In this document: positions 1 through 17,448 of the stretch, piece after piece
Position numbering within the stretch: position 1 is the first letter of the stretch
Layout: each line of letters opens with the position of its first letter
Origin: an uncultured Armatimonadia bacterium
Lineage (GTDB): Bacteria > Armatimonadota > Zipacnadia > Zipacnadales > JABUFB01
Direction: 5' to 3'
Assembly: GCA_964639415.1 (NCBI GenBank)
Contig: CAZXDD010000003.1
Location: 1-39,795 of the forward strand
DNA length: 39,795 bases
Position numbers and translations under genes: made by a program
Notes under the pieces: generated by a model
The model's database searches: none
Told to the model about the DNA's origin: nothing
The model's input: the letters and a program-made list of their open reading frames with translations, nothing else

Positions 1-136
1 GAGCGTCCATCTCGCGCAGCGAGATAGCGAGGAATCTCGCGGAATGCCAGGAGATCCCTCGAACTGCTCTTGCCGGGAGCGGACGCTTCCACAGCGACAT
101 TCCCGGCCAAGGCGCGGAGTTCTCGGCCGCACCTCT
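1..136 (+). repeat. Structured intergenic repeat, copy 1 (5' side possibly cut by window start)
   Basis: Aligns by eye with 38724..38856 in the same orientation, about four fifths identical with one 3-nt indel. Nested pairing: closing helix 1-8/81-88; hairpin atctcgc-gca-gcgagat at 9-25; arm 29-38/51-60; arm 66-71/75-80. Confidence 0.8.
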
Positions 137-1427
137 ACACCTGATGCCGGTCGAAGTCCAGGGGGCGCACCCGGTATTGTAGCTCCGTAGCCCCGAACCC
201 GATGAGGTCGCCATCGCCCAGGCGCTGGGAGTGCACGGGCCGGCTGTTCACGCTGGCCTGCGCCCCATCGGTGCAGCGCAGGACGTGCACGGCTCCCACC
301 GCCTCGATGATGCAGCGTCCGGGCCCTATGGCGGTGTCCTTGACCAGGGGTATGTCGGCTCCCAGGTCGCGCCCGATGATGGTCTCGTGCTTGTACAAGA
401 CGAACTGCTTGCCCGAGAGCGGTCCACCGACCACCACGAGCCAGGCCTCCTTGCGCATCTCTTCCACCAACCCGATACCCAGGCCGGTGCACAGGCCGAG
501 TGTGGTGATGCCGACCAGACGCGACGGTGAGCCCGCGATGATGCCCGGCTGGCCCGCCGCCGGCGGGCCAAGGAGGGCCTGGAACAGCAGGTCGATTCCG
601 TCGAATAGCAGGCCGCCCACGAAGCCCCCGGCGGCGCCGCCGATCGCTCCGTTTGTGATCTTGCGTCCGGCCATGCCCATCACGCCGGGTCCCATCCCGA
701 CCAGAGCCCCGACGGCGGCCCAGCCGATGGAGCGGGCGGCCACGGTCTGCACGATGAAGGACAGACTGAGGTCGGTGCCCGCGCCGCCCAGCAGCAGACG
801 GAAGACTGTCTGGCCCAGCACGCCGCCGATCGCGCCGCCCAGCAGTCCGGTGGCGAAGCCCAGGCCCGCCCCCGTGGCCGCTCGCGACCAGGCCCCCAAT
901 ACCACGCCCTCGGCCGCCCCCAGGCTCAGCCCGATGAAGGCCCCCATGATCGCGCCGAACTTGCATGTGTACACAAGCTGCGCCAGCGGACCGGAGGCGG
1001 AGCTGCCCGCCCCCAGGGCGTGAGCACGCATGCCGGGCTCCTGCACCGCCCAGGCCAGGAACCCACCGATGGCGCCGGCCACCATCATCTGCAGAACCAG
1101 CGAGCCCGTAAGCTGCCGGACCGCGGCCCCCTTCAGTTTGCCGTTCACATCGGCGGTCACGTCCACCGCCGGGTAGCCACCGGAGGGCAGAGCCGGATAG
1201 TCGGGGACGTCCGGGAGGTCCTCGGCCTCGATGACGATCAGGTCGGGTCGGGCGGAGGAGGAGGCCGCCGGAGGCGGAGCGTCCGGCTCGGCGTCGCCGA
1301 TCAACTCCACCTCGACCGGAGCCAACTGGATCTCGATCTCTTCCGTGCCATCCCCGGTAGGTGCCCCGGGGTACCGCTCCTCGGCTGACTGGTTCATCTG
1401 TTGGGGTGCTCCCGGCACGGCAATCAT
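135..1427 (-). CDS. Polytopic glycine-rich membrane protein with C-terminal FHA domain
   Basis: 430-aa ORF. The C-terminal ~95 aa are FHA-like (TIIGRDLGADIPLVKD...VNSRPV...LGDGDLIGFGATELQYRV). The middle has about six Gly/Ala-rich hydrophobic segments and the N-terminus is Pro/Asp/Glu-rich. An alternative start at ATG 1397 has a better GGGAG upstream. Last gene of the Ubl cluster. Confidence 0.8.
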   Translation of the reverse strand: MIAVPGAPQQMNQSAEERYPGAPTGDGTEEIEIQLAPVEVELIGDAEPDAPPPAASSSARPDLIVIEAEDLPDVPDYPALPSGGYPAVDVTADVNGKLKGAAVRQLTGSLVLQMMVAGAIGGFLAWAVQEPGMRAHALGAGSSASGPLAQLVYTCKFGAIMGAFIGLSLGAAEGVVLGAWSRAATGAGLGFATGLLGGAIGGVLGQTVFRLLLGGAGTDLSLSFIVQTVAARSIGWAAVGALVGMGPGVMGMAGRKITNGAIGGAAGGFVGGLLFDGIDLLFQALLGPPAAGQPGIIAGSPSRLVGITTLGLCTGLGIGLVEEMRKEAWLVVVGGPLSGKQFVLYKHETIIGRDLGADIPLVKDTAIGPGRCIIEAVGAVHVLRCTDGAQASVNSRPVHSQRLGDGDLIGFGATELQYRVRPLDFDRHQV

Positions 1428-1520
1428 CCACCGCAGGCAAGACGCCCCGGCGGACGTACTGGTCCGAGGGTCCCCTGCAACTACGGGGCCATTGCGGCGG
1501 CGGTCAATCGGGCGGAGCGG

Positions 1521-2312
1521 CTACTGCAAGGAGGACAGAAGAGGGGCAAGGCGCGCCGACAGGGCCAGATACAGAATCACCTGCGCCACCGGCCCCAGTA
1601 GACCGAGGACCACCGCCGAGACGGCCTTGACACTCACCGTTGGGCTTGGGACGCGGAATCGGCGCAATGAGACCAGCACGGAGACGCCCATGAACAGGGC
1701 CACGACGGACACCACCGGGCAGCAACAGAGCCCCAGCAGCGCGTAGCTCAGGGCCGTGGAGGCGGTGGAATCCATCTGCGCCACGGTGGCCCCCGCCGCC
1801 TCGCGCTCGATGGCGGCCACCTCGCGCCATGAGGGGATGCGGGCGGGTATTGCCGCGCTCGGCCCCTGCCGCGGGGCCTCACGGGGGGCCTCACGGGGAG
1901 CCTCACGGGGAGCCTCGCGCGGCGCCACCAGCGCAGGGCGCCCCACGGGCGGGTACTGACCGGGGCGGTTGGCCTTCGCGGCGGGGGCCATGGCGCAGCC
2001 GTAGGTGGTGCAGCCGTCGTTTTCCAGCCAGCATTCGTAGTGGTGGGGCACCTTGCACAGCGGACAGACGATCACCCGATCGTCGTGGCCGATGGGGTAC
2101 TGGTCATACGGACAGGTCTTGCCGATCAGCTCGCCGGCGGCGGAGCGCGGCAGGGGGTGTTCGGAGGCGGGGCGACGCGCAGGGGCGTCGGTGGCCGGAG
2201 GCGCGGGCGCCGGAGACGGCGGTGTGGTGGGCAGCGAGAACACCTGTCTGCCGCAGCGCGTGCAGAACCGGCCCTCGATCTCGAATTCGTGACGGCAGTA
2301 GGGGCATCTCAT
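1521..2312 (-). CDS. Membrane-anchored zinc-ribbon / prokaryotic RING-finger-like protein (candidate E3)
   Basis: 263 aa. N-terminal CPYC-x12-CTRC zinc ribbon. aa 67-106 read CPYDQYPIGHDDRVIVCPLCKVPHHYECWLENDGCTTYGC, which matches the Prok-RING family-1 style pattern (CPxC-x4-H-x2-CW-x6-C-x4-C). Then a (REAP)n repeat and two C-terminal hydrophobic helices. Confidence 0.7.
   Translation of the reverse strand: MRCPYCRHEFEIEGRFCTRCGRQVFSLPTTPPSPAPAPPATDAPARRPASEHPLPRSAAGELIGKTCPYDQYPIGHDDRVIVCPLCKVPHHYECWLENDGCTTYGCAMAPAAKANRPGQYPPVGRPALVAPREAPREAPREAPREAPRQGPSAAIPARIPSWREVAAIEREAAGATVAQMDSTASTALSYALLGLCCCPVVSVVALFMGVSVLVSLRRFRVPSPTVSVKAVSAVVLGLLGPVAQVILYLALSARLAPLLSSLQ
1869..1922 (-). repeat. 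12-bp in-frame tandem repeat (~4.5 units) encoding (REAP)n
   Basis: Plus strand reads ggggcctcacgg / ggggcctcacgg / ggagcctcacgg / ggagcctcgcgc. Translates on the minus strand to PREAPREAPREAPREAPR inside the RING-like CDS. Confidence 0.9.
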
Positions 2313-2416
2313 GTGTGGTAACGCGAGCTGGGTGGCGCACGTTTCGCGGGCCGAACGTCCCCCGCCGGCTCACCCACGGTCTCATCGCAGTCGTGGGGTA
2401 AGGGGTACCGCCGGCC

Positions 2417-2959
2417 CTAAATCAGCCTGATGTCAAGCTCCTCGGCACCCGGGCGGCTCTGCCGCGAGGAGGGGCTCAGCAGGCTGATCTCGATGTCCGG
2501 TTGGTACAGGTCCACATCGCCGATGGGCAGCAGGGAGGCGTTGATCTCGGCCCAGCGCGCCGCGATGCCGTTCAGCGGGCTCTTGGTATTGTAGTTGCGG
2601 TACTGGATCATCTCCCCGATCTGGATGATCAGATCGTCGATGCTCTCGCCCGGGGTCCAGTGGTCGCCGATGCAGATCTGCTGGTGACTGATATTGGGGT
2701 GGAAGACCTCGGTCTCCATGGTGCACCGCGGCTTCTCCCGGGGATAGCCCTCATGCAGGTAGATGCGGACCCGATGCTCGTTGACCGCGATGGGTCGGTT
2801 GGCCCGGGTGTCCAGGCGCAGGCCGCGCACGTGGAAGGTAACGTGATAGGCCTCGGGCGGATCGCCCTGCAGGGGCACCACCTGGATGTTCGGATGCCCG
2901 CTGAAGTGCTCGGTTATCCGGCAAGAATCGGCATACAGTCGCCTGAGCCGTGCATTCAT
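2417..2959 (-). CDS. Ubiquitin-conjugating enzyme (E2/UBC fold)
   Basis: 180 aa with the canonical UBC core: YPREKPRCTMETEVFHPNISHQQICIGDHW...SPLNGIAARW. HPN is at aa 87-89 and the candidate catalytic Cys96 codon is at 2672-2674. Confidence 0.85.
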   Translation of the reverse strand: MNARLRRLYADSCRITEHFSGHPNIQVVPLQGDPPEAYHVTFHVRGLRLDTRANRPIAVNEHRVRIYLHEGYPREKPRCTMETEVFHPNISHQQICIGDHWTPGESIDDLIIQIGEMIQYRNYNTKSPLNGIAARWAEINASLLPIGDVDLYQPDIEISLLSPSSRQSRPGAEELDIRLI

Positions 2960-3036
2960 GTCTCAGCGCTCGCCTCGAGTGTGGTGACAGTCTCTGTATG
3001 GTACCGCAACTGCATCTATGGGCTGCGCCCGGAGGA

Positions 3037-3088
3037 GACCGTCGGACGGCCGGTTCGGCGGGTCGGAAGGCCCGGCCCACCGACGGTC
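3037..3088. other. Inverted repeat (9-bp perfect arms gaccgtcgg / ccgacggtc) in the JAB-E2 spacer
   Basis: Arms at 3037-3045 and 3080-3088 flank a GC-rich 34-nt interior. It lies in an unusually long 260-nt gap inside an otherwise compact cluster. Confidence 0.35.
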
Positions 3089-3219
3089 GTTGAGTCACCC
3101 CAACCCATGTATGGTTGTAGTTCCGGCGAAGCTCCATCTCAGACCGACGAGCGCGGCGCGGAGGTTTGAGGCAGAGCTTCGCTAGCTTCATACGTCAGTA
3201 GACGCGCCCACATAGGCAT

Positions 3220-4212
3220 CTAGCGTGAGGCCGGTCCGGCCGGGAGAGGCCGGTCTCGCCCCGCCCCTCCGTCGGTGAGCGGCCCCGGGATCAGCAGTCT
3301 CGTCCCCGGCCGCACCTGCGCTCCGGCCAGGCCGTTGGCTACGGCCAGAGCCCCCCACTTGTCCTCGTCCCCGTAGCGCTCGCGGGCGATGGTGCGGAGA
3401 GTGTCGCCGGGCCGGGCGATATGGACCTCCGCCTCATCGTCCGCCACCGGGTCCGCCCCCCGGTCGGTGAGCGGCGCCAGAGCCTCGCGTAGGTCTGTCA
3501 CCTGCCCGCCCACGGTCCTGATCGCCGCCAGCGTCTCCGCATCGGTGACTGACCCCTGCGGCCGCGTGAGCTCCACCGTCTGCATGGCCAGCAGCGCCAG
3601 GAGCGCGCAGACAACCAGCGTCAGCCAGGGTCCGCCACCGGACCGTGGGGCCGAGGCGGTAAAGGGCCGTGGCGGTGGGGATTGCTCCGCGGCGTGAACG
3701 ACTTGCAGCCCCGCCGGGCCCACGATCTCCCCATCTTGCCAGACGAACACGCCCGAGGTCTCGGCGCGCGGGTCCAGAACCAGCGCCACCTGCCAGGGCA
3801 GGCTGAAGAAGTTGCGGTGGATGAACAGGTCGTATTCGGACAGGAAGATGCCAAAGCCCGGGTGGGTGTGGTACCAGCCGATGATGCGCTTGTCGGCGAA
3901 GTCTTGCTCCCGCCGGGCACTGATCTGCGCCCAGGTCTCGTGGGTGAAGGTGATGCTGCCGCGCATGGACTGAGTGTGCTCGGCGGCGATGGCGCCCTCG
4001 ATGTACACGACCGTCCCGGTCTCGCAGGAGGAGGCGGTGCCCACCAGCACGCCACCCAGCTCATGGTCGAGGTCCTCCGCGGCATGCCGCCGCACCTGCG
4101 CCAGCACCTCGCCCCGCACGAGGACCACGGCGCCGGAGGCCGACGGGGTAGGAGCCGGCTCACTGAGGCCGACCTGTACGTCCGGAGCGTCATCGGCCAT
4201 GGTGTCTGTCAC
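3220..4212 (-). CDS. JAB/MPN (JAMM) metalloisopeptidase - TM helix - LysM domain protein
   Basis: 330 aa. Complete JAMM signature: E51 (HELGGVLVG) and H115-T-H117-P-x6-S125-x2-D128 (GWYHTHPGFGIFLSEYD). Hydrophobic helix WLTLVVCALLALLAMQTV. C-terminal LysM-like HIARPGDTLRTIARERYGDEDKWGALAVANGL...VRPGTRLLIPG. Confidence 0.9.
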   Translation of the reverse strand: MTDTMADDAPDVQVGLSEPAPTPSASGAVVLVRGEVLAQVRRHAAEDLDHELGGVLVGTASSCETGTVVYIEGAIAAEHTQSMRGSITFTHETWAQISARREQDFADKRIIGWYHTHPGFGIFLSEYDLFIHRNFFSLPWQVALVLDPRAETSGVFVWQDGEIVGPAGLQVVHAAEQSPPPRPFTASAPRSGGGPWLTLVVCALLALLAMQTVELTRPQGSVTDAETLAAIRTVGGQVTDLREALAPLTDRGADPVADDEAEVHIARPGDTLRTIARERYGDEDKWGALAVANGLAGAQVRPGTRLLIPGPLTDGGAGRDRPLPAGPASR

Positions 4213-4288
4213 CTCCGGGCTCTTGTGAGAAAGCTCGGGCGGACGGGAGCAGCGATACCGGGCCGGCAGGCCCCGCCCTCCCGGCGGC

Positions 4289-5494
4289 TCAAGCGATGGC
4301 CCCCAGGGCCTGACCGCGATCTCCCGCCAGCAGATAGTGCTCGCTGTGCATGCCGCAGCGACCCCGCACGATGTCGTAGGGCGGGATCCCGAACTGCGCC
4401 AACGTCAGACCCAGGTACTGCTCATCACCGTGGATCGCGTGGACCGACTGCGGCGAGCGTGCCTGTCCACACCTGGGACAGGCCGCCTGCCTGCCGGTGA
4501 GCTTGCCCAGCGCGACGAAGACCTCCTGGGCCACATCGCACCGGGGGCAGTGCAAAGCGGTGCAGATCTCGCGGTCAAACTCCAGCACCGCCTCGGGGCC
4601 GATGCGTCCGCGAACGAAGCCGAGCAGCTCGCCCAGCGTGGCCGTGGCGGCGGAGAAGTCCGTGGACGTCACCGGTCCCTGCTCGTCGTGGGCCGGGCAG
4701 TCATCCCTGCGCCGGTACTGCACCACATACGAATCGTGGGTCAGGCCGTTGAAAACGAAGCCCCTGCCCGACAAGAGAGGCAGGTCGCGGTCGCGGTGTA
4801 GCCACTTGACGGCTTCCTGCACCTGAATGCCCGCGATCACCGAGGCCGTCGTGGGAGTGGTGGGGACTTTGCCCTCCAGCACGTCATCTCGAGTGAGCAG
4901 GGCGCAGGAACGGCGCATGTTCAGGAGCTTGTAGTCCAGATCGGTGAGCGTGCATTCGTAGCAAGGGCCGTCGGGGGGGTAGAACCCCCGGGCCAGGCCG
5001 TGCACCACCTCTATCGCCCCATCGATCCAGGGCTTGCCCAGCCTCCAGCAGACCTGATTGACAAACAGGCGAGCCTCGCGGTTGTCCAGGCCTCCGAGGA
5101 CGATATCCATGTCGGCAAACACGCCGGCGCCGATGTCGTGGACGATGTTTGCCCGGTGGGCCTCCACACGCACGTCGGGGTTGAGCCGCCGCATCGACCC
5201 CGCGGCGACCAGGGCCTTGTCCTGCCCGGCGTCCTCGTGGGTGAACAGCACACTGCGGGTGAGGTTCGTGTCCTCGATGGTGTCGAGGTCCACGACGAGG
5301 ACATTGCCGATGCCCAGCAGGGCCAGGTTCTTGCACAACTCGTTGCCGATGGCGCCGGCGCCGACAACCATCACCCGCGCCGCGGCGAGCCGGTCCTGCT
5401 CCCACCAGGGGATCAGGCGCAGTCTCGAGTAGCGGTCCTCCTCGAGGTCGACGTCCACCGGAGCGTTGGGGTTGCAGGCATCGTGCTGTGCCAT
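4289..5494 (-). CDS. E1-like (ThiF/MoeB/UBA-family) Ubl-activating enzyme
   Basis: 401 aa. Motifs: RYSRL; Rossmann VMVVGAGAIGNE; VVDLDTIEDTNLTRS; CYEC; Cys in RRSCALL; C-terminal CPRC-x24-CPRC. The start lies 2 nt after the Ubl stop. Confidence 0.9.
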   Translation of the reverse strand: MAQHDACNPNAPVDVDLEEDRYSRLRLIPWWEQDRLAAARVMVVGAGAIGNELCKNLALLGIGNVLVVDLDTIEDTNLTRSVLFTHEDAGQDKALVAAGSMRRLNPDVRVEAHRANIVHDIGAGVFADMDIVLGGLDNREARLFVNQVCWRLGKPWIDGAIEVVHGLARGFYPPDGPCYECTLTDLDYKLLNMRRSCALLTRDDVLEGKVPTTPTTASVIAGIQVQEAVKWLHRDRDLPLLSGRGFVFNGLTHDSYVVQYRRRDDCPAHDEQGPVTSTDFSAATATLGELLGFVRGRIGPEAVLEFDREICTALHCPRCDVAQEVFVALGKLTGRQAACPRCGQARSPQSVHAIHGDEQYLGLTLAQFGIPPYDIVRGRCGMHSEHYLLAGDRGQALGAIA

Positions 5495-5496
5495 GG

Positions 5497-5766
5497 TTAG
5501 CCGGCTGTCAGCTCGGGCTCGAGACGGAGCACGTCGCCTTCCTGCACGCCGGCCTCACCCAGGGTCTGGTCGTCGCCCAGCTCCTTGCCGGTGGCCTTGT
5601 GCCGGAAGCGGTAGCTCAGGGGCGCCCCATCGGGCCCCACGGTGGGCAGCTCCATCATCTGCACCAGTTTGGTGATGATCCGCCGCACCGCGGCGTCATC
5701 GGGCAGACTGGCCTGCTGCTCCTTATTGCCCGTCACATCGATAACCGTGACCGTGACCTTTCCCAC
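5497..5766 (-). CDS. Ubiquitin-like beta-grasp protein ending in Gly
   Basis: 89 aa with a GTG start preceded by AAGGAGG. Sequence alternates beta-strand-like and helix-like stretches (KVTVTVIDV...AAVRRIITKLVQ...YRFRH...GDVLRLEP) and ends ...ELTAG-stop. Sits directly upstream of E1. Confidence 0.75.
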   Translation of the reverse strand: MGKVTVTVIDVTGNKEQQASLPDDAAVRRIITKLVQMMELPTVGPDGAPLSYRFRHKATGKELGDDQTLGEAGVQEGDVLRLEPELTAG

Positions 5767-6204
5767 GAGACGAAGACCTCCTTGAATGCGGGTGACTCTC
5801 CAATGCCGGGCGCGGCGCTGTGATGGCGTCTCCGCGGGCCACGGCGGCGGCGCCGCGGCGCGTCCATGGCAACGAACTGCTGCGAGCCGTCCGGCTCGCC
5901 GAGTCGGGCTGGGAGCTCAGATTATGCAGGTTCTGGGCGGGCGCCGACTCACGTCGCCTCACCCCCCCAACCCCGCCTCTCGGCGTCTCTCCGAGCCGCT
6001 TGTACTCGCCGATACGACCGGCGAGACGGGATGAGGGGGGAGAACGGCACTATTGCGAGCGATAGAGGCTTTAGTGCGGCGTGATGTGGCATAACTGCGC
6101 CCATGCATAATGTGAGTGGGAAGCCCGACCTACGCGTTCACGAACGGCGTGATCGCGACCCCCGATCTAGATTTATCTGTACAGAAGTCGGTGCATAGGG
6201 GCAC

Positions 6205-7113
6205 CTAGTGCAGGGTGATGTCCACATCCGACAGGTCGTCGCCCTGCTGCGTCTCGGCACGAGCTCCCGTCCTAACGGGTGCCTGAGCGGCCCGGCCCCG
6301 CAGGACGTAGTGCACAAGCAGCAGGCTGGTGGCCCCCGAGGTGAGGATGGAGACGATCACGACGATGCCGATGACAAGTGGCAGTGACATGGGACTGCCC
6401 TCCGGCGTCACGGGCTCGGGGGCCTCTTCGCCGCTCCCCACGGCGACCAGCGGCACCAGCGCCTCGCCCGGGGCAACCTGATAGGGTATCTGGTGTTCCT
6501 GCAAGAATCCGGCCAAGACCTCACTGGGCACGGCAAAGCCGAGATTCTGAGCGTCCTTGACCACAGTGGTGCTCATGCCGATGACCGCGCCACGCTCATC
6601 GACAACCGGGCCTCCGGAGTTGCCGGGATTGAGGGCGGCGTCGATCTGGACGAACTCCCGGCCTCCCACGCGCCGCCTGACGGCACTGACGATGCCCTTG
6701 GTGAGGGTGTGGTCCAGGCCCATGGGCGCCCCGATGGCGAACACGTCCTGTCCGGCCCTGGCGGCGCTGGAGGCCGCCAGTCGCAGCGGGATCGGCGGCG
6801 CAGCGGCGCACTCGATGAGGCACAGGTCGCGCCCGTCGTCGCGGGCGATCACGAGGCCTGCGGAGACGGCGGAGGAGGACAGCTTCACCTCGACCCGCCG
6901 GGACTTGCGGACCACGTGGGCCGCGGAGAGGATGTGGCCGGCATCATCCACGATGAAGCCGGCACCGTCGAAACCGGGGCCCCGGACGGTGACCACGGCC
7001 GGGTCGATCACCGACAGCCAGTCCCTGTCCGCCCCGGGGTGCTGAGATTCCTGGGCGCAAGCTCCCGCGACCAGTGCCGCTGCCAGACCGATCAGTACAG
7101 CCGTGCGAGTCAT
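6205..7113 (-). CDS. Trypsin-like (S1/HtrA-type) serine protease with N-terminal signal peptide and C-terminal TM anchor
   Basis: I trimmed the ORF to ATG 7113, which has GGAGG upstream. Sequence begins MTRTAVLIGLAAALVAGACAQ. Motifs: ILSAAHVV, DLCLIE, GNSGGPVVDERGAVIGM. C-terminal helix LPLVIGIVVIVSILTSGATSLLLV. The 110-aa Arg-rich N-terminal extension in the ORF track looks non-coding. Confidence 0.8.
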   Translation of the reverse strand: MTRTAVLIGLAAALVAGACAQESQHPGADRDWLSVIDPAVVTVRGPGFDGAGFIVDDAGHILSAAHVVRKSRRVEVKLSSSAVSAGLVIARDDGRDLCLIECAAAPPIPLRLAASSAARAGQDVFAIGAPMGLDHTLTKGIVSAVRRRVGGREFVQIDAALNPGNSGGPVVDERGAVIGMSTTVVKDAQNLGFAVPSEVLAGFLQEHQIPYQVAPGEALVPLVAVGSGEEAPEPVTPEGSPMSLPLVIGIVVIVSILTSGATSLLLVHYVLRGRAAQAPVRTGARAETQQGDDLSDVDITLH

Positions 7114-7402
7114 GCCTGACCTCCGGTACGTACCTGCCCCCACCCTGTGCGCCGGTGGGTAACGCCGCCTGCCGGAGGGTCTCCAGCAACTGGCGTACCA
7201 TCCGGCGAGCCGCCGGCTCTTCCGGCACGAAGGTGGCACGGTACGAGGGAGGCCGACAAGACGGCGCAGGGCGACGGCACGCAGATGCCGTCCCGGACCG
7301 CTCCGGCCGTTGTGGGGCCGCGACAGCGGCGCGGGGCACCCCGAGCGGAGGGCCCGTGCCGGCCGGGGCCCGCCGGCGGTCCCCGCGATTCCTCTGCGCC
7401 TG

Positions 7403-9070
7403 CTACTGCGCCGGCGCGGGCACCGTCCAGTGCGTACCGGCAATGTGTGTCACGTTCTGGTTGTCATTGAGGTAGTAGATGGTGAAGATCGTCCCGTCCT
7501 CGAGCTGCACAGACAGCGGGTAGCCGTTGTCTCCGCCATTGCCGGTGCCGTCGGCCCGGAGGATGATCTCGTTGGCCGTGTCCCAGGTGTGGCCGCCGTC
7601 AGCGCTCAGCACCGCCCGCACGCCCATGCCGTCGCGGCGGTAGCCGTAGGTGCACAGAAGCCGCCCCTCTCGCAGCAGGATCAGGTTCGATGGGTAGCCC
7701 CAAAACCCGCAGTCCTCCGGCTCACTCCACGTCTTCCCGCCGTCTTGGGAGAAGCACTGGTAGCTATTGTGGCTCTCCGGTGTGGGACGCATGACCGCGA
7801 TCAGCTCGCCCATGCCGTTTGCACAGACGGCGGTCTCATTGAACCCCAGATCGTCGCCTACCGGCAGCGCGACCGGGAGCACGTCCCAGGTTTCGCCGTT
7901 GTCCTCGGAGCGCACGGCCCACACCCCGGACAGGGCCTCAGGGCCATCGGCGCCGTAGATCACACAGAGCCACAGGTCGTTTTCGCGCACGAAGGAGCTG
8001 CTGTTGAAGGTCATCATCCCACCCTTGACCGGGCAGGGCAGTTCGATGACTTCCCGCGTGCCGTCGGGCTTGACTACGGTGACCTGCGGATCGCCGAGGT
8101 AGGCGACGGTACCCTCCTTCGCCTTCATCCAGTGTCGGCCGCGCTCCTTGATCTGTGGCAGCTCGGCTTCATCCACGTAGATCCAGCCCCGAGCGCCGGG
8201 GATCAGGACGGTGCCGTCCTCCCGCAGGTTCTGCGGCGGCGTGAAGGTCTCTTCGGTGGGCCGCCAGGTGCGTCCACCGTCGGCGGAGATCATCCGAGCG
8301 CTGCCGCCGGTGCCGTCGATGTGTGAACGCCGCACACGGGTGCCGAAACCGGTCACCAGGCGACCGTCATCCAGACGTGTCAGGGACGGGAAGCAGGCAT
8401 AGACGCCGGGCTTGTGGTAGATCACCACATCCTCGGCGCCATCCAGCCGCTTGGGCAGGGGCCCCGTGGAGGTGCGCACCTCCTTGTAGTAGGCCTCCGA
8501 GGTGGCGGCGCTGGAGATCGAGCCGAACACCACCACATTGCGCTTCTGATGGGCCGGGGCGGTGAGCAGTCCCCACCCGTCGATGACCGGCTCCCCATCC
8601 ACCCACACCTCGAAGTTCATCCCGCTGATGCGCAATTGATAGGTGTGGAAGTCGTCGGTGGTGTCCATCGCGTGGATGAGGCCGGAGCCTCCGCATTCGA
8701 CTCTGTCGGGGTACAGCGTGATGGATTCCTCGTGCACACCGTCGGCGGCCAGGAGGCAGACACCGGCCCTGGAGCTACAGGACACGACCTTCACCGTCGC
8801 CTGCACCAGCGCGCCGCGGTCCGGACGGGCGCCCCAGTTTCGCGAATACGAGCGCAGCTCACCATTGGCGGTGCCCGCGTCCACCAGGTGCAGGCCCTGC
8901 TCGGTGACCTCGGCCGAGGTGTTCGCGCCACCGCCGCCGCCCCACCCCGCATCTCCCGGGAGCTCCTGTGCCGTGTAAACGCCCGTCCAGTCAATCTGTG
9001 CCATCTGCAGTTGCCCCCATGAGACAGATGCGATGAGAACAAGCGCCATGGAACCCGCCGGAATGTGCAT
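7403..9070 (-). CDS. BNR/Asp-box repeat (sialidase-fold) protein with N-terminal concanavalin/LamG-like region
   Basis: 555 aa. Four Asp-boxes: SADGGRTW, SEDNGETW, SQDGGKTW, SADGGHTW. Signal-like N-terminus and AGGAGGG upstream of the ATG. Confidence 0.85.
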   Translation of the reverse strand: MHIPAGSMALVLIASVSWGQLQMAQIDWTGVYTAQELPGDAGWGGGGGANTSAEVTEQGLHLVDAGTANGELRSYSRNWGARPDRGALVQATVKVVSCSSRAGVCLLAADGVHEESITLYPDRVECGGSGLIHAMDTTDDFHTYQLRISGMNFEVWVDGEPVIDGWGLLTAPAHQKRNVVVFGSISSAATSEAYYKEVRTSTGPLPKRLDGAEDVVIYHKPGVYACFPSLTRLDDGRLVTGFGTRVRRSHIDGTGGSARMISADGGRTWRPTEETFTPPQNLREDGTVLIPGARGWIYVDEAELPQIKERGRHWMKAKEGTVAYLGDPQVTVVKPDGTREVIELPCPVKGGMMTFNSSSFVRENDLWLCVIYGADGPEALSGVWAVRSEDNGETWDVLPVALPVGDDLGFNETAVCANGMGELIAVMRPTPESHNSYQCFSQDGGKTWSEPEDCGFWGYPSNLILLREGRLLCTYGYRRDGMGVRAVLSADGGHTWDTANEIILRADGTGNGGDNGYPLSVQLEDGTIFTIYYLNDNQNVTHIAGTHWTVPAPAQ

Positions 9071-9315
9071 GTGACCTGTCCCTCCTGTACTCGAGAGATC
9101 GGGCGCGATGCCCGACGTGGTCGCCGCCGCGTAACGGATGTTAACAGCTTCCCCCTCGGACGCGCCGGCCCCTTCCGGCGGGGCATCATCCGGGCCTCAA
9201 TCACGGCGGCCCGGACTCCGATAACGACTCAGGCGCTCTCTCGGCGGGCGCTTCGAGTATCATCTCCCCCGGCGATCACCGCGCCGGGGCCTCCCACACC
9301 GATAGGCTCATTGCT

Positions 9316-11028
9316 ATGGCCCATGACTTGCTCACCCCCCGCTCGATCGCGCTGAAGCTCCCGAAGGCCCTGGACGGGCGCGAGCGCTGGCCCCTCCTAT
9401 GTGACGGCGTCCTGTGCCTGCTGGGGATCGACGAGGCCCAGATCGAGCAGGTCATGCGGCGTCGCTGGCTGGAGGGACTGGAGCAGTTGGCCGCCGGTGA
9501 GGGGAGCCAGGAGGCGGCGAGGATCGCCCTGGGTGCCGCACCGGTGGCGGCGGCGCTGAGCGGCGGCGAGACCGATCCCGCCTCTGCCGCCGTCGCCGAG
9601 GTCCTGCAGGCCTCGCTGGATCTCGGCCGCCGCCGCGCGGCAGGCCTGCACATTGCCCTCGAGGATGGGCGGATCCAGTCGGCCCAGGACGAGCACGCCG
9701 GGCGTTTCCTGGCCGACCTCCGGCGCGGCGAGCAGGCCCTCATCGAGGGACTCACCTCCGACCAGGCCCCCGGGCAGGCCTTCGCCACGGCCGCCGAAGC
9801 CCTGCACAGCGCCATCGATGCCTTCAAGCACGACCCGATCGCCCACTTCCTGCTGGGGTGGCTGGAGCTGCACCATGCCGCCGACCCCTTCAGTGCCCGC
9901 GCGACTTTCGAGCGGGCCGTGGGCTGTAGACGCGTGGATGCCGAGTTCCGCTGCCTCATCCTGCGCCACATCGCCTGTGCGCTGGACATGCTGGCCCACA
10001 GGGACCCGGGCCAGGCCGGGAACCTGCGCGAACAGGCCGCCAACGCCATCTCCGAAGCACTGACCATCGCCCCCGAGGACCCGGTTCTGCAGTGGGAGAC
10101 GGCCAGGCACTGCGCGGCCACGGGGCGACTGAGCAACGCCAAGCGCCTGCTCACCGAGGCCATGGCCGCCGACCCGGCGCTGGCCATCGAGGTCGCCCTC
10201 GATCCCGCCTTCACCGCCTACGAAGAGGACCTGCAGGAGGTGTTCCGTAACCTCAGGGAGCGCTCGCGCCGCACCGCTCAGGCCGCCATCCGACAGGCCG
10301 AGGCCATCGCCGAGGGGCTCCGCCAGATGTCTCTTGAGACCTCTTCACTGTCGGCGGGGCTACCAGACGACGCCGGAGATCCCGGCCCCGAGTACGCGAC
10401 GGACGGGCTCCCCGCGGACGAGCCCGACGGCCTCGAGGAACCGGAGAGCCTCGCGGGCCTGCACCTGGCGGAGGCCATGTTCTCGCAGGATAGTCATGTC
10501 TCGTGCGCGGCGGCCGCAAAGGTCGCCGACGAGGCACGGGGACTGCTTCTTCAGGAGGCCCACGACGTCTTCGGGCGACAACTGGAGGCGCTGTACCAGG
10601 AGCGCGAGCAAGTCGGCCTGGAGGCGGAGGAGGTGCTCCGGGCCGTGGCCCAACTGCCCGATGAAACCTGCCTGGAGCCACAGGAGCCCGGAGAGGAGGA
10701 TCGGCTCTTCACCCGACTGGCCACCGCCTTGCTCCGCGGCGCTCTCGCCATGGCTCTGGTCGCCGTGGCCTGCCTGGTCCTCGGCGGGCATCTGTGGCCC
10801 CTCGGGTGGACTCTGTTGGGGCTGTCGGCACTCATGTGCGTGCCGCAACTGATGCAGAGCATGGACCTGAGGCTCGGCTTGCCCGGCTGCGAGCCGGCCC
10901 AGGAGTCCATGGACCCGGAGGCGGCCCACCGCCTGCGTCTGGCCGCCGCCGACTACCAGGAGCAATTGGACGACATCGACGGTCGCATCGCCGAGGTTTC
11001 CGCGGTCCTGGCCCAGTTGGCGGCATAG
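9316..11028 (+). CDS. Hypothetical Ala/Leu/Glu-rich helical-repeat / coiled-coil protein with C-terminal TM segments
   Basis: 570-aa ORF with high GC3. The overlapping antisense ORFs are Ser/Arg/Ala-rich shadows. TPR-like helices (HFLLGWLELHHAADPFSARATFERAVG) and hydrophobic LRGALAMALVAVACLVLGG...LLGLSALMCV. Start uncertain. Confidence 0.6.
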   Translation: MAHDLLTPRSIALKLPKALDGRERWPLLCDGVLCLLGIDEAQIEQVMRRRWLEGLEQLAAGEGSQEAARIALGAAPVAAALSGGETDPASAAVAEVLQASLDLGRRRAAGLHIALEDGRIQSAQDEHAGRFLADLRRGEQALIEGLTSDQAPGQAFATAAEALHSAIDAFKHDPIAHFLLGWLELHHAADPFSARATFERAVGCRRVDAEFRCLILRHIACALDMLAHRDPGQAGNLREQAANAISEALTIAPEDPVLQWETARHCAATGRLSNAKRLLTEAMAADPALAIEVALDPAFTAYEEDLQEVFRNLRERSRRTAQAAIRQAEAIAEGLRQMSLETSSLSAGLPDDAGDPGPEYATDGLPADEPDGLEEPESLAGLHLAEAMFSQDSHVSCAAAAKVADEARGLLLQEAHDVFGRQLEALYQEREQVGLEAEEVLRAVAQLPDETCLEPQEPGEEDRLFTRLATALLRGALAMALVAVACLVLGGHLWPLGWTLLGLSALMCVPQLMQSMDLRLGLPGCEPAQESMDPEAAHRLRLAAADYQEQLDDIDGRIAEVSAVLAQLAA

Positions 11029-11264
11029 CGCCTGCGCGCCAGAGCCGCGTTCAGTTCGCAGAACCACCGAATCGTTGCTCGGTGCCCCGGGGCCGACGAG
11101 GCCATGGGTGCCGAGCGACGGCCGCCTTCGGCGACGGCGTTCCTCGGCGCAAGCCTGCTTGCCACTTCCTTCCCGTGCCGAGGACCCCGCCAAGGAATAC
11201 CTCCCCGCCACCCCGAATATGCTCCGGTCGGCCGACAGACTCCCTTCCTGGAGCGAACCCGACT

Positions 11265-12212
11265 ATGACACCACGCCAGGCCGCCATCGCGGCCCTCAAG
11301 CGCGAGAGACCCGACGCACTGGTACCTCACCTGGAGCTGGAGTTCCAACTCGCCGAGGAGTTGTGGGGGCCCGAGAAGCGCTCCCTGCGTGCGGAGCATC
11401 TGGAGGGCGTGACCGGCGCGGCCAGGCAGGATGCGCTCAAGCGGAATGCGCAGAACTGGGTGGACATCGCCAGACGGTACAAGTGGAACGTGATCACGGG
11501 CCTCCATTGGCTCTCGCTGGAGGACCAGTGCCGATCCTTCCGGTACATCCGGGAGATCTCCGGCGACGAGTTCATGCTCTCGGTCTTCGCGGACGGCACG
11601 TTCAGCATCCCCAGCGGCACCGATATGCTCGAGCACGTGATCTGGCTCACGGAACACACTCAGGAGGCTCTGCAGACCGCGGAGAACCACGCTCAGAATG
11701 CTATCGCCCATGTGAAGACGGCCGTCGAGGCGGGGGGCGAGGTGGTCATGATGTGCGCCGACTACTGCTTCAACGACGGCCCCTTCCTCTCCCCCACCAT
11801 GTTCCGACAGTTCGTGACCCCGTATCTGACTAAGGTCGTCGCGGCGATCCACGAGGCCGGTGCCTTCGCGGTCAAGCACACCGATGGGCAGATCATGCCC
11901 ATTCTCGACCAGATGGTGGACTCGGGCATCGATGCCCTGCACTCGCTGGACCCCATGGCGGGCGTGGACATCGCCGAGGTCAAGCGCCTGTACGGCGACA
12001 GAATCTGCCTGATCGGCAATGTCAACTGCGCCAGGGTGCAGGCGGGGACGAAGGAGGAGGTGCGGCAGAGCGCCGAGTATTGCCTGAAGCACGGCGGTGT
12101 GCAGCAGGGCGGGTATATCTACGCCACCAGCAACTGCATCTTCGAGGGCGTCCCCATCGAGAACTACGAGGAGATGCTGCGGGTACGCGAGGAGCTGGGC
12201 TATCCGGCCTAG
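11265..12212 (+). CDS. Uroporphyrinogen decarboxylase (URO-D)/MtaA-like family protein
   Basis: Trimmed to ATG 11265, which has GGAG upstream. The C-terminal half resembles the URO-D fold (FVTPYLTKVVAAIHEAGAFAVKHTDGQIMPILDQMVDSGIDALHSLDP...RICLIGNVN). Confidence 0.65.
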   Translation: MTPRQAAIAALKRERPDALVPHLELEFQLAEELWGPEKRSLRAEHLEGVTGAARQDALKRNAQNWVDIARRYKWNVITGLHWLSLEDQCRSFRYIREISGDEFMLSVFADGTFSIPSGTDMLEHVIWLTEHTQEALQTAENHAQNAIAHVKTAVEAGGEVVMMCADYCFNDGPFLSPTMFRQFVTPYLTKVVAAIHEAGAFAVKHTDGQIMPILDQMVDSGIDALHSLDPMAGVDIAEVKRLYGDRICLIGNVNCARVQAGTKEEVRQSAEYCLKHGGVQQGGYIYATSNCIFEGVPIENYEEMLRVREELGYPA

Positions 12213-12242
12213 CGCCGGCGAACGTCACCAGGGAGGTGCAGC

Positions 12243-14891: not shown

Positions 14892-14953
14892 GCCGGCCGC
14901 GGCCGATCGCCGTGCCCATCCACCGTGCCATCCCTCCAAGGAGGTCCTGACCG

Positions 14954-17164
14954 ATGGATACGTTCCCATTGCCCGGCGCGCTGGCACTCATCGTGGTCTC
15001 AACGGTGGTGTTCGGCGCCTTGCCCGCCGACGCTCAGGACGCGGCCGTGGAGCCGGCGGCCAGGATACGTCCCGATCACCCGCGGCTGTTTGTGAACCGC
15101 GACCAGTGGCCGGCAATCCGCGACCGGGCGCTGACCGTCGGCCGCGAGCACTATGAAGCCCTGCGCAAGCACGCCGCGAGCACCCCGCGCATCTTCGAGT
15201 GGACCGAGTTTCCCCTCCGCGAGCCCCGTCCGGGGTCCGATGTGGCGGTGGCCGACTGGGGCGCTCAACTCATGTCGCTGGCCTTCGTCTACCGCATGGA
15301 GCCCTCGGAAGACCTGCTACAGGAGATCAAGCACAAGCTCCAGGCGAGCCTGGACTTCTACCACGCGGCCTATGAGGACAAGAAGGCGGTGAGCTGGTAT
15401 GGCCGCAGCCGCGTGGGCTGGCTCACCGCCTTCGACTGGGTCTTTGAGGACCTCACACCGGAGGAGCGCCGGACTCTGGGCGAGAGCATGCTCTCGCACG
15501 TGGACGACATCTTCAACCTGACCGGGATCGTGCGGCGGAACATGGGCGGCTACGGCTCCGGCTACTACGGCGCCGACAGCGTGGCGCTGTACGCCGGGAT
15601 CGCGTTTCTGGGCGCAGGGATCGACGACGAGGCGGCGCAGGGGCTTGTCAAGCGCGGTTACGACACCTACCAAAAGCTCCTGGCGCACCGTGCCGAGTCC
15701 TGCGGCGACGACGGGGGCGCGGCCTCGGTCACCGTCACGTACTCCTTCGTGGAGTACCCCTGGGCGGAGTGGAGCTTCCTGCATGCCTGGAAGGCGGCCA
15801 CCGGTGAGGACCCGGCCGCCGACTGGCCGCACATCGGCTGGATCTGCAACTACATGCTGTGGAACTGGCTACCGGGGAACCACGAGTACGGCTATGGCGA
15901 CACCCCGCACCTGACCAACAACTTCCCCTCCGGCCATCTGTACAACCACATGTCGCATATCATGCACCTGTACCACGGCTCGCACCCGGAACTGGCGGCC
16001 CTGGCCCACCACGTACGGGAGAAGGCCGGGGGCGGGTTCCTCCCCGCCTACTTCGGCCTCTACCCGCTCTTGCTCACCGATCTTGAGAAGGCTCCGCCGC
16101 CGTTGGACCCGGGCCTTCTGCCACCGGCGCGACACTTCGAGAAGATGGGGCAGGTGTTCATGCGCTCCGGGCCGGGGGAGGACGACACCTACGCCCTCTT
16201 CGCCTGCGGCGGCATCACGGGCAACCACCGGCACTATGACGCCACCCATTTCACCATCTACAAGAGGGGCTTCCTGGCCCTGGACACCGGCACCCGCGCC
16301 GGCAACCCGGACAACCTGCAGAACTACTACGCCCAGACCATCGCCCACAACTGCATCCTCATCAAGATGCCCGGCGAGCCGCCCTCTCCCTACTGGAACG
16401 GCGAGGTGTTCCAGCAGGCGGGGGGGCAGAACAAACAGGTGGGGGCGCAGGTAGTGGCCTTCGAGACCGGCCCGGAGTTCACCTACGTGGCCGGCGATGC
16501 CACGCCGCAGTACAACGCCGAGAAGTGCGCCCTGATGGTGCGCCAGTTCGTCTTCGTTCCTCCCGACCACTTCGTCGTCTTCGACCGCGCGGTCTCCACG
16601 CAGGCCGAGTTTGCCAAGACCTGGCTTCTACATCACGCCAATGAGCCCACTTTGGAGGGCAATACCTGGCATTCGGACCAGGACCGCGGGCGGATCTTCT
16701 GCCGCACCCTCCTGCCTGCCGACGCCGTCCTGGAGAAGGTCGGAGGGCCGGGCAAGGAGTTCCTCGTCGAGGGCGTCAACTACCCCATCGACCAGGGGCC
16801 CTCGGAGTACATCATCAACCGCGGCGACGCGACTCGGGCGGTGAAGTACGAGGAGGTGCCCGAGCTGATGGGACGCTGGCGCATGGAGGTGCGACCGGGC
16901 GCCGCGCGCACCTCGGACGTCTTCTTGCACCTGATCCAGGTGGGCGACCAGGAGCCGGCCGCCATGGGCCGGGCCGAGGCGGCCGTGGAGGGCGACACGG
17001 CGAGGCTCAGCTTCGACGCGGGGGACCGCCTGGTCTCCCTGAGCCTGAACACCACCGGACCGATCGGCGGCCACATTCAGATCATCCGCGAAGACGGCGT
17101 GCTGGTGGACCGACCGCTGACGAGTGAAGTGATGCCGCAGCAGTGGCTGGCCACGCTACAGTAG
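14954..17164 (+). CDS. Heparinase II/III-like (polysaccharide lyase-type) protein
   Basis: 736 aa. Signal peptide. GNHRHYDATHFTIYKRGFLALDTGTR and IAHNCILI are typical of the heparinase II/III C-terminal domain. AGGAGG upstream. Confidence 0.75.
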   Translation: MDTFPLPGALALIVVSTVVFGALPADAQDAAVEPAARIRPDHPRLFVNRDQWPAIRDRALTVGREHYEALRKHAASTPRIFEWTEFPLREPRPGSDVAVADWGAQLMSLAFVYRMEPSEDLLQEIKHKLQASLDFYHAAYEDKKAVSWYGRSRVGWLTAFDWVFEDLTPEERRTLGESMLSHVDDIFNLTGIVRRNMGGYGSGYYGADSVALYAGIAFLGAGIDDEAAQGLVKRGYDTYQKLLAHRAESCGDDGGAASVTVTYSFVEYPWAEWSFLHAWKAATGEDPAADWPHIGWICNYMLWNWLPGNHEYGYGDTPHLTNNFPSGHLYNHMSHIMHLYHGSHPELAALAHHVREKAGGGFLPAYFGLYPLLLTDLEKAPPPLDPGLLPPARHFEKMGQVFMRSGPGEDDTYALFACGGITGNHRHYDATHFTIYKRGFLALDTGTRAGNPDNLQNYYAQTIAHNCILIKMPGEPPSPYWNGEVFQQAGGQNKQVGAQVVAFETGPEFTYVAGDATPQYNAEKCALMVRQFVFVPPDHFVVFDRAVSTQAEFAKTWLLHHANEPTLEGNTWHSDQDRGRIFCRTLLPADAVLEKVGGPGKEFLVEGVNYPIDQGPSEYIINRGDATRAVKYEEVPELMGRWRMEVRPGAARTSDVFLHLIQVGDQEPAAMGRAEAAVEGDTARLSFDAGDRLVSLSLNTTGPIGGHIQIIREDGVLVDRPLTSEVMPQQWLATLQ

Positions 17165-17448
17165 TTGGTGGCCGGCGGTGGTGCGTTCCCGAGAGGAGAC
17201 CCTGCCATGGCTGTGCGGTGCCCTCTGTTGTGCCTGGCGTTGGGCGTGCTCGCCGTGCAGGCGCGGGGCAAAGGCCACTCGTGTGTGTCTGGACAGGATG
17301 ACCGCCGCCCGGGCGGGCCGGGAAGTCACTCCGCGGTTGTCCGCCAACAGCCGCCATGGCGGCGCCGACACATGCCAACCGGCCCGGCAGACAGGCTCAC
17401 AGACGCCCCCTCAGCCAGGGGGCGATGAACGAGGCAAGGAGCACGGAC

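Follow-up and report, generated by a model that had tools for sequence, protein, structure and literature searches.

A probable membrane-tethered ubiquitin-like conjugation operon with a RING-like protein in an uncultured Armatimonadia bacterium

Complete cascades composed of an activating enzyme (E1), a conjugating enzyme (E2) and a RING-type ligase (E3) are a hallmark of eukaryotes. Among prokaryotes, the operon of Caldiarchaeum subterraneum (Aigarchaeota) encodes the sole RING-containing cascade that has been reconstituted in vitro (PMC5654768), and the bacterial systems Bil, Cap2/3 of the cyclic oligonucleotide-based antiphage signaling system (CBASS) and Bub operate without an E3 (PMC10557695, PMC11601596). 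According to the papers citing them, RING-containing operons of bacteria are rare bioinformatic predictions of Burroughs, Iyer & Aravind (2011); they are cited solely as such (PMC5654768, PMC10557695), in agreement with what the original prediction for the DNA analyzed here had said of the literature. That DNA, hereafter the window, is a stretch of 39,795 nucleotides from an uncultured Armatimonadia bacterium (assembly GCA_964639415.1, contig CAZXDD010000003.1), and it carries an operon of seven genes for a ubiquitin-like protein (Ubl), an E1, a JAB/JAMM peptidase, an E2, a RING-like protein, an FHA membrane protein and a trypsin-like protease. The abstract of Burroughs, Iyer & Aravind (Mol Biosyst 2011, 7:2261) reportedly went on to suggest such systems as the conjugation machinery of YukD-like Ubls, and the same work is said to be the source of the Pfam family Prok-RING_1 (PF14446). 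The locus belongs to the operon type predicted by comparative genomics in 2011, and its Armatimonadia member is new. The operon is organized as follows, with Pfam scores in bits and lengths in amino acids (aa):

6205-7113, minus strand: trypsin-like serine protease, 302 aa from the ATG at 7113 (the longest open reading frame extends to 7443)
5767-6204, minus strand: intergenic gap of 438 bp between the protease and Ubl genes
5497-5766, minus strand: Ubl, 89 aa, YukD 51.8 bits
4289-5494, minus strand: E1, 401 aa, ThiF 182.4 bits
3220-4212, minus strand: JAB/JAMM peptidase, 330 aa, JAB 38.8 bits, Prok-JAB 35.5 bits, LysM 20.9 bits
2417-2959, minus strand: E2, 180 aa, UQ_con 36.7 bits
1521-2312, minus strand: RING-like protein (candidate E3), 263 aa, Prok-RING_1 32.7 bits
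135-1427, minus strand: FHA membrane protein, 430 aa

Six of these open reading frames (ORFs) made up the original prediction, which had placed every one of them exactly on the minus strand but overlooked the seventh conserved co-directional gene, that of the protease. The residue motifs quoted at that time are all present in the E1, E2, JAB, RING and Ubl proteins, the last of which indeed ends in LTAG; two spacings need adjustment, as FHPNI is separated from Cys96 of the E2 by five residues rather than six, and the six residues between C94 and C101 of the RING-like protein include a Trp. When judged against the curated Pfam cut-offs, the YukD, ThiF, JAB, UQ_con and Prok-RING_1 assignments all passed, and the FHA domain was confirmed with a profile of its own family. 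The reading of the locus as an E1-E2-E3 cascade therefore appears sound at the level of sequence. Its description as a eukaryote-type ubiquitin cascade stands in part: a UBC-type E2 and a RING-like protein are present, but the tag is of the YukD type and ends in Ala-Gly, and the E1 has a single adenylation domain instead of the canonical multidomain architecture.

As the class predicted in 2011 is described in the papers citing it, the window operon shares its YukD-type Ubl, ThiF-type E1, UQ_con E2 with HPN and Cys, Prok-RING_1 protein bearing transmembrane (TM) segments and JAB peptidase, all encoded co-directionally. Each testable defining feature of this Ubl-E1-E2-RING-JAB class, as given in those descriptions, is found here, with no defining difference. 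The Caldiarchaeum and Asgard ubiquitin operons likewise encode a Ubl, an E1, an E2, a small RING E3 and a JAMM/Rpn11-like peptidase (PMC5654768). Their tag belongs to the true ubiquitin family, whereas that of the window is a YukD-family protein with an Ala-Gly end, and the RING, JAB, FHA and protease proteins encoded with it are predicted to be membrane anchored. The archaeal tag is matured to a Gly-Gly end, and the archaeal components are soluble. Among bacterial systems, Bil is likewise encoded by one operon for a Ubl, a JAB peptidase, an E1 and a UBC-like E2, and its conjugation activity toward lysines is demonstrated (PMC10557695; Hör et al. 2024); it differs in having no E3, a multidomain E1 (BilD) and soluble proteins. 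In PADLOC searches of the window, the BilD model reached 30 bits over the generic adenylation core only, and BilA, BilB and BilC gave no match. Type II CBASS shares E1 and E2 chemistry and a JAB peptidase (Cap2/Cap3), but there E1 and E2 are fused in Cap2, the conjugated protein is a cGAS-like enzyme, and neither a free Ubl nor a RING protein is present. In the window, E1 and E2 are separate genes, no gene for a cGAS/DncV-like nucleotidyltransferase (CD-NTase) is present, and the PADLOC E1-E2 models match only residues 11-195 of the E1. Bub also unites a bacterial Ubl, E1 and E2 with a serine protease (PMC11601596), yet its intermediates are oxyesters, a catalytic Cys is absent, and BubE, the protease of that system, is a beta-sandwich with a Ser-His dyad (PMC11601596). 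In the window operon, by contrast, both cysteines are conserved and the protease has a trypsin fold with a His/Asp/Ser triad predicted to lie outside the membrane.

We then considered the tag and its activating enzyme. The Ubl is a YukD-family (PF08817) beta-grasp protein scoring against a cut-off of 27 bits, and the ubiquitin model reached 20.0 bits, under its cut-off of 25.4. It terminates as LRLEPELTAG followed directly by the stop codon and thus lacks a tail in this genome. In 62 distinct homologues the terminus LRLQPEITAG is nearly invariant and the C-terminal TAG is at least 95% conserved; 25 of them end exactly at the Gly, and nearly all the others carry one to nine unrelated, variable residues after TAG. 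As far as sequence can tell, such a conserved end with variable extensions is the pattern typical of a conjugated modifier matured by a peptidase, and it is not expected of a structural YukD of type VII secretion. The E1 displays the sequence marks RYSR (residues 21-24), GAGAIG (45-50), DLDTIEDTNLTR (69-80) and CYEC (178-181), and at least 95% conservation extends over the nucleotide-binding and Arg-finger signatures, LDNREAR, CYEC, R-x-S-Cys197 and GKxPTTPT. Cys197 (window 4904-4906) is the only conserved Cys of the crossover loop, and its position there, within a 401-aa protein that has one adenylation domain and no separate Cys domain, resembles that in UBA5 and MoeB-type enzymes. When compared with the Protein Data Bank (PDB), the adenylation domain matched UBA1, UBA7 and UBA6 best (1e-28), followed by SAE2, UBA5 and NAE, with MoeB (3e-18) and ThiF (2e-17) behind. 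The remaining C-terminal domain of about 135 aa (residues 266-401; window 4289-4699) contains an invariant C..H, CxxC...CxxC pairs and a His.

The conjugating and deconjugating enzymes are equally recognizable. The E2, whose UQ_con score compares with a cut-off of 27 bits, carries YPREKP (residues 72-77), HPN (87-89), Cys96 (window 2672-2674) and SPLN (127-130), with HPN and Cys96 invariant in the family alignments (at least 95%). Ubc13/UBE2N gave the top PDB sequence matches, and the AlphaFold2 (AF2) model adopts a canonical UBC fold with a predicted local distance difference test (pLDDT) of 90.5 and a predicted template modelling score (pTM) of 0.82. A Foldseek search of the PDB with this model returned 395 chains at E<=1e-3, the top ones all being UBC E2s, namely Ubc13, UbcH5, UBE2K, UBE2S and Rad6. 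The protein begins with an invariantly basic helix (R4, R6, R7) and finishes with a disordered, acidic tail ending in ELDIRLI. In the JAB protein, the peptidase (residues 1-190) is predicted to be cytosolic, and a single TM helix (191-217) would connect it to an extracytoplasmic LysM domain, whose score of 20.9 bits equals the Pfam cut-off. Its E...HxH...S..D motif is intact: the JAMM residues H115-x-H117-x7-S125-x2-D128 lie at window 3829-3870, and together with E51 they are at least 95% conserved. In a 99%-identical Armatimonadia contig (locus L007, 5633-6239), the JAB gene appears as two overlapping ORFs, probably through a frameshift or an assembly error; in the window the gene is intact.

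The RING-like protein contains the pattern C67-x2-D70-x12-C83-x2-C86-x4-H91-x2-C94-x6-C101-x4-C106 (window 1995-2114), for which Prok-RING_1 (PF14446) scored above its cut-off of 29.1 bits. In 33 close relatives, C67, C83, C86, H91, C94, C101 and C106 are invariant, as is an N-terminal CxxC...CxxC zinc ribbon, and H90 is kept in 29. At the family level the pattern is C-x2-C-x12-C-x2-C-x4-H-x2-C-x6-C-x4-C, that is, eight conserved metal ligands in C4HC3 order. The AF2 model exceeds a pLDDT of 90 over residues 55-110, and its leading Foldseek matches were RNF13, RNF12 bound to Ube2e2 (probability 0.96, 1.6 Å over 43 columns), the RING E3 of the UBE2K complex 7ojx, Ark2C and ZNRF1. When a profile of the domain was compared with the PDB, the RING-H2 finger of the rice E3 EL5 came first (E=1.8e-5), followed by RNF24 and Arkadia. 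The original prediction would have been overturned had its E2-like and RING-like proteins belonged to unrelated folds; this is not the case, as the E2 has a UBC fold and the RING-like domain matches RING E3s best, with weak to moderate fold and profile support for the latter. Its assignment to the cross-brace, binuclear fold class is well supported, and from its genomic context the protein may act as the E3. Two C-terminal TM helices are predicted and are also helical in the AF2 model. Membrane-tethered RING E3s of eukaryotes include MARCH and Doa10 (RING-CH) and RNF13, a PA-TM-RING E3. The window protein resembles eukaryotic TM RING E3s in having a cytosolic cross-brace zinc domain on TM helices, with a C4HC3 order and RNF13 as the top structural match. 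The homology is at the domain level only, with weak E-values and different spacing, here x4 before the His and x4 in the last pair. The linker of the window protein also holds a low-complexity stretch of four tandem PREA repeats (1875-1922, minus strand); the 255-aa protein P0121 of the near-identical metagenome-assembled genome (MAG) has two fewer, pointing to a variable repeat number.

The gene neighborhood further supports a single functional unit. Hidden Markov models built iteratively from the seven window proteins were used to annotate all loci collected. In a scan of 185,579 species genomes (one genome per species), 282 loci were found, the top match (99% identity) being an uncultured Armatimonadia MAG. 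In a protein collection, the E2 alone had 1,944 relatives at E<=1e-3, several of which are named Armatimonadota MAG proteins. The operon family is widespread among uncultured Armatimonadota and is also hosted by 'Zipacnadia', WS1, Acidobacteriota, Planctomycetia, Myxococcales, Actinomycetes, Abditibacteriota and many Clostridia (Bacillota); four hosts are cultured, namely Anoxynatronum sibiricum Z-7981, Tissierella creatinini BN11 and Lachnospiraceae MC2017 and LC2019. Synteny was counted in species-level genomes, using the 35 loci whose sequence reached at least 7 kb upstream and 5 kb downstream of the E2 gene. All 35 contain the Ubl, E1, JAB, E2 and RING genes together on one strand, which bears out the neighborhood conservation expected from the original prediction; a protease gene next to the Ubl gene is present in 26, an FHA gene in 24 and the full set of seven in 19. 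The recurrent order, on one strand, is protease-Ubl-E1-JAB(-JAB)-E2-RING(x1-5)(-JAB)-FHA, with one to five RING and one to three JAB paralogues per locus. The 35 loci with the five core genes include members of Armatimonadota, WS1, Bacillota, Acidobacteriota, Planctomycetia and Actinomycetes. A minimal five-gene form occurs in Anoxynatronum and its relatives, comprising the Ubl, E1, E2, JAB-LysM and a RING protein of 112-119 aa with one TM helix. Clustering of the other ORFs in about 80 loci disclosed no further widely conserved flanking family, the largest cluster being clade-restricted and limited to nine loci; accordingly, neither a kinase or phosphatase nor an ATPase or secretion substrate is linked to the operon. 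When window and Clostridia proteins are compared, identity amounts to 58% for the Ubl, 54% for the E1, 48% for the E2, 34% for the JAB protein, 35% for the protease and 31% for the FHA protein. The resulting order of conservation (Ubl > E1 > E2 > JAB/protease > RING/FHA) follows the same trend as in eukaryotic systems and indicates, from these comparisons, a constrained core with diversified specificity factors. Taken as a whole, the locus is a real, intact and strongly conserved system.

Within the operon, the Ubl stop codon and the E1 start are spaced by 2 nt, AAGGAGG stands just 5' of the GTG start of the Ubl gene, and GGAGG precedes the protease ATG at 7113, the likely start. The promoter and leader of the Ubl-E1 transcription unit probably lie in the 438-bp gap upstream of the Ubl gene; our scans of it detected neither a sigma-70 consensus promoter nor an Rfam match (E<=1). 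This gap is unusually long, the protease and Ubl genes being much closer together in most relatives. In loci L001 and L002, whose operons are canonical in other respects, a HicB/HicA antitoxin-toxin pair (7368-7791) separates the E1 gene from the JAB gene. Several relatives, but not the window, encode an additional, smaller E2 paralogue upstream of the protease; these are L001 (4198-4659), L010, L015, L022, L029, L035, L039, L048, L049, L054, L056 and L057. The paralogue has no acidic C-terminal tail, and its interpretation as a catalytically dead ubiquitin E2 variant (UEV) was rejected, as HPN and the Cys are kept. In a variant lineage (L003, L004 and L008; for instance, L003 7286-17205), JAB/LysM-JAB-E2-RING-JAB-FHA genes are followed directly by three secretin genes and preceded by FliG/FliM and ABC permease genes, with no Ubl or E1 gene within 9 kb; the E2 cluster of this lineage was found on dozens of contigs.

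The last gene of the operon encodes a multi-pass protein with an acidic cytosolic N-terminal tail (residues 1-105), about five to six Gly-rich hydrophobic segments and a C-terminal FHA-fold domain at approximately 327-424 (window 156-449). The single window sequence scored 14.8 bits, under the Pfam cut-off of 20.7, with the YscD-type FHA model as its best Pfam match, and the family profile matched the FHA domains of GarA and OdhI at E=1.9e-16. A single polypeptide combines the E2 with the FHA membrane protein in 22 Clostridia loci; in Lachnospiraceae MC2017 and Tissierella creatinini, both UQ_con and FHA of this E2-TM-FHA fusion exceed the Pfam cut-offs, with FHA at 43.8-54.4 bits. The fusion therefore argues for a scaffold or receptor role of the FHA protein rather than the output role assigned to it earlier. 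A precedent for an FHA domain acting as a Ubl-associated scaffold instead of a phosphothreonine reader may be seen, by analogy, in the core complex of the type VIIb secretion system (T7SSb), in which YukD binds the FHA domains of YukB and a beta-hairpin non-covalently (PMC12637312). At the other end of the operon, the protease (Trypsin_2, 103 bits) has a His, Asp and GNSGGP triad that is at least 95% conserved. It is predicted to begin with a signal or lipoprotein-like peptide, to expose its protease domain outside the cytoplasm and to cross the membrane by a C-terminal TM helix, after which 31 aa remain in the cytosol as a tail with the end DDLSDVDITLH. By hydropathy calculation and the positive-inside rule, the E1, E2 and Ubl are predicted to be soluble, and the RING, JAB and FHA proteins and the protease would be anchored in the membrane, with the LysM and protease domains outside.

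The cytosolic termini of the E2, protease, E1 and JAB proteins are marked by a short acidic strand motif, an observation new in this analysis, in which residues alternate as hydrophobic-acidic-hydrophobic-x-hydrophobic. In the window, this five-residue core is confined to terminal segments and occurs as follows:

2423-2437, minus strand: C-terminal motif LDIRL of the E2, with a second copy, DIEISL, at 2480-2494
6211-6225, minus strand: C-terminal motif VDITL in the tail of the protease
5444-5458, minus strand: N-terminal motif VDVDL of the E1, just before RYSR
4165-4179, minus strand: N-terminal motif VQVGL of the JAB protein
1302-1337, minus strand: motifs IEIQL and VEVEL in the N-terminal tail of the FHA protein, clade-specific and not conserved across the FHA family

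Stand-alone E2s end in sequences of the DDLxIELL type, and proteases, after their TM helix, in sequences of the EDLSDIDITLH type. No more than 3 aa separate the motif from the C-terminus in 54 of 57 stand-alone E2s and 45 of 47 proteases, and the other five families show no such case. In the 74 JAB-LysM proteins it occurs 39 times, and 36 of these occurrences share a fixed N-terminal position some 106-128 aa ahead of HxH. In the E1, where the window version reads PVDVDLEE, the motif is found at most 16 aa before RYxR in 23 of 50 proteins, compared with a mean of 2.4 and a maximum of 7 in shuffled controls. RING linkers carry it in some clades only, and a scan of the window proteins found the core in neither the Ubl nor the RING protein. 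The motif is probably a common docking signal. The minimal systems devoid of FHA and protease keep it on their E2, and a receptor should therefore be sought among the Ubl, E1, JAB and RING proteins; the FHA domain was accordingly rejected as sole receptor. The Ubl itself is one candidate because it never carries the motif, which would make the latter analogous to the SUMO-interaction motif (SIM); the basic N-terminal helix of the E2 (R4, R6, R7) is the other, and we suspect that the receptor is probably one of the two.

Altogether, we consider it probable that the locus encodes a membrane-tethered, seven-gene machine for Ubl conjugation and deconjugation. Its gene content, folds, conserved catalytic residues, synteny, E2-FHA fusion, C-terminal processing signature and terminal motif are directly supported; its chemistry, topology and targets and the function of the motif are inferred from them. 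The 89-aa YukD-type Ubl of the window ends in TAG; in relatives with extra residues after TAG, it would be trimmed first, most likely by the JAB peptidase. The E1 would adenylate Gly89 and then hold the Ubl as a thioester on Cys197 before handing it on to Cys96 of the E2. At the inner face of the membrane, the RING protein with its two TM helices would position the E2~Ubl intermediate for transfer to lysines of membrane-proximal targets, and the membrane-anchored JAB protein, with its external cell-wall-binding LysM domain, would strip the tag again. The multi-pass FHA protein may serve as a phospho-independent scaffold or receptor for the E2, and the trypsin-like protease, with its catalytic domain outside, would touch the cytosolic machinery solely via its 31-aa tail.

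Several observations weigh against this mechanism. For the activating step, Cys197 lies about eight residues before the Cys of the UBA5 stretch GVCAASL, which we take to be the catalytic Cys250, in the same loop but not exactly aligned with it; moreover, the C-terminal domain of the E1 found no significant PDB relative in a profile search, with weak zinc-ribbon matches only and none identifying it as a ubiquitin-fold domain (UFD). The window RING domain has Asp70 where 107 of 110 distinct family domains carry a Cys as second ligand, the Foldseek E-values of its matches, at about 0.4, are not significant, with the whole-model search interleaved with TM helices of GABA receptors, and PHD fingers are interleaved with RINGs at close scores in the profile search. 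The E2 tail, with a pLDDT of about 55, is docked nowhere in the AF2 model, which therefore points to no partner of the motif; such low confidence is as expected of a docking peptide. The topology comes from simple calculations, and the literature searched holds no biochemical or experimental work on any family member. Finally, the Ubl ends in Ala-Gly and not in Gly-Gly, and classical YukD has been reported as not conjugated (PMC1779556).

This last point bears on a different explanation, in which the Ubl would never be conjugated and the YukD-fold protein would be a permanent, non-covalent assembly factor of an FHA-containing membrane complex, with the E1- and E2-like proteins employed otherwise. 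The Ubl does resemble YukD/EsaB of T7SSb and the N-terminal domain of EccD of T7SSa (EccD model, 25 bits) in its Pfam family and in its association with an FHA membrane protein, YukD of T7SS is a non-covalent structural subunit that binds FHA domains (PMC12637312, PMC1779556), and one variant lineage has secretin genes adjoining the FHA gene. Nonetheless, the Ubl of the window operon has an invariant C-terminal Gly within a TAG followed by variable tails, its gene abuts that of the E1 in 35/35 loci, and the catalytic residues of E1, E2 and JAB are conserved in systems that include a RING protein and, in their minimal form, no FHA protein at all. In addition, no T7SS gene (the EssC/EccC FtsK-like ATPase, WXG100 or EssB/YukC) is present in the window or as a conserved family in the flanks of about 80 loci, where no other conserved family appeared either. 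We thus regard a non-conjugated Ubl as very unlikely. Less credible still, to the point of being nearly negligible, is a sulphur-carrier pathway of the MoaD/ThiS-MoeB/ThiF type for the synthesis of a cofactor or thionucleoside. Although the ThiF, MoeB and SAMP-E1 models of NCBIfam are the best partial matches of the E1, they fall far under their cut-offs (132.9 versus 275; 124.5 versus 449), no rhodanese domain or biosynthetic gene is found nearby, and the operon contains E2, RING and JAB genes together with an E1 that is nearer to eukaryotic E1s than to MoeB or ThiF.

Two further proposals leave the conjugation cascade in place and differ in its purpose. The original prediction coupled it to Ser/Thr phosphorylation, the FHA protein being a phosphothreonine reader that links conjugation to kinase signaling. 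The fold is genuinely FHA by the profile and fusion scores given above, the window sequence keeps the Arg of the phosphothreonine site in a Gly-Arg dipeptide, and a few protease tails have a Thr or Ser inside the acidic motif (as in DVDITLH). However, when 47 sequences were aligned to GarA, the phosphothreonine contacts were retained in only 6 (Arg), 7 (Ser) and 3 (Asn), as against 41 for the structural His, and in the window protein Gly stands in place of the Ser, Arg in place of the His and Ala in place of the Asn. Its best Pfam match is the phospho-independent YscD-type model, the FHA protein is missing from 11 of the 35 loci, and no kinase or PP2C phosphatase is encoded in the window or among the conserved neighbors. 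The coupling to phosphorylation was thus not borne out, and we find such a reader distinctly improbable. A second proposal places the operon among antiphage or conflict systems, alongside Bil, CBASS Cap2/Cap3 and Bub; it would sense envelope damage through its LysM and protease domains and tag phage or host proteins at the membrane. The Ubl-conjugation operons studied in bacteria all act in phage defence or, by context, sit in it (PMC10557695, PMC11601596). The spread of the family is sporadic (282 loci in 185,579 species genomes, at least seven phyla), which, together with the 48-58% identity of the Ubl, E1 and E2 between Armatimonadota and Clostridia, implies horizontal transfer; RING and JAB paralogue numbers vary, HicAB is inserted in one lineage, genes for an XRE helix-turn-helix (HTH) and an ImmA-like protein lie upstream in Lachnospiraceae, and a candidate defence pair (PLD and SNF2) is found 17 kb away in the window. 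Yet PADLOC recognized no more than generic E1 and JAB matches, with none for the E2, RING, Ubl or FHA proteins, and the flanks of the window operon are carbohydrate-utilization and metabolic genes. Three Pfam-annotated relatives are flanked by housekeeping genes that differ between lineages (for L044, a locus apart from these three, the flanks were judged solely by eye from the N-termini of the ORFs), and searches of plasmids, phages and IMG/VR phage contigs turned up no member of the family, the IMG/VR matches being limited to distant giant-virus E2s. A defence function is therefore possible but doubtful in our judgment, and for the physiological role of the conjugation machine we lean slightly toward control or quality control of proteins at the interface of membrane and cell wall.

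A bolder version of that role can be imagined, though we would call it unlikely and offer it as speculation by analogy. The seven proteins might form a trans-envelope signaling or quality-control device with no characterized bacterial counterpart, in which the YukD-type tag would be attached and removed at the cytosolic membrane face, the terminal motif would act as a 'Ubl-interaction motif' akin to SUMO-interaction motifs, and the protease tail and the LysM-JAB protein would couple tagging to proteolysis outside and to the status of the peptidoglycan, reminiscent of endoplasmic reticulum-associated degradation by membrane RING E3s. The existence of such an operon is not surprising to specialists. 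Its occurrence in cultured anaerobes makes the biochemistry and biology directly testable, with the Ala-Gly terminus and its natural precursor tails, the named catalytic cysteines, the minimal five-gene version, the E2-FHA fusion, the protease partner and the terminal motif as handles. Should conjugation be shown, a YukD-fold protein would be established as a covalent modifier, and the operon would offer a bacterial model for the function of membrane-anchored RING E3s.

Outside the operon, the window and related loci present other gene groups. In L060, L063, L073, L076, L077 and L083 (Lachnospiraceae/Oscillospiraceae), the upstream genes encode an XRE-type HTH protein and an ImmA/IrrE-like metallopeptidase (HEAGH), both assigned by eye; XRE-HTH and ImmA/IrrE modules typically regulate mobile or stress-induced elements. 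In the window, a PLD-like protein gene followed by that of an SNF2-type helicase occupies 24708-29647 on the plus strand, possibly together with 23367-24707, about 17 kb from the Ubl operon. The former matches PLDc_2 and, in PADLOC, ZacB (40.8 bits), PDC-M27B and DrmC, and the latter PDC-M27C (132 bits), DrmD (101 bits) and ZacC (90 bits), making them a candidate antiphage defence pair. Glycan-utilization genes surround the operon (7403-22713 and 37070-38680) and comprise two BNR/sialidase-like genes (BNR_2) and representatives of DUF5060, heparinase II/III, GH123, GFO/IDH/MocA and DUF4838 with Laminin_G_3; URO-D is also among the families of the window flanks.

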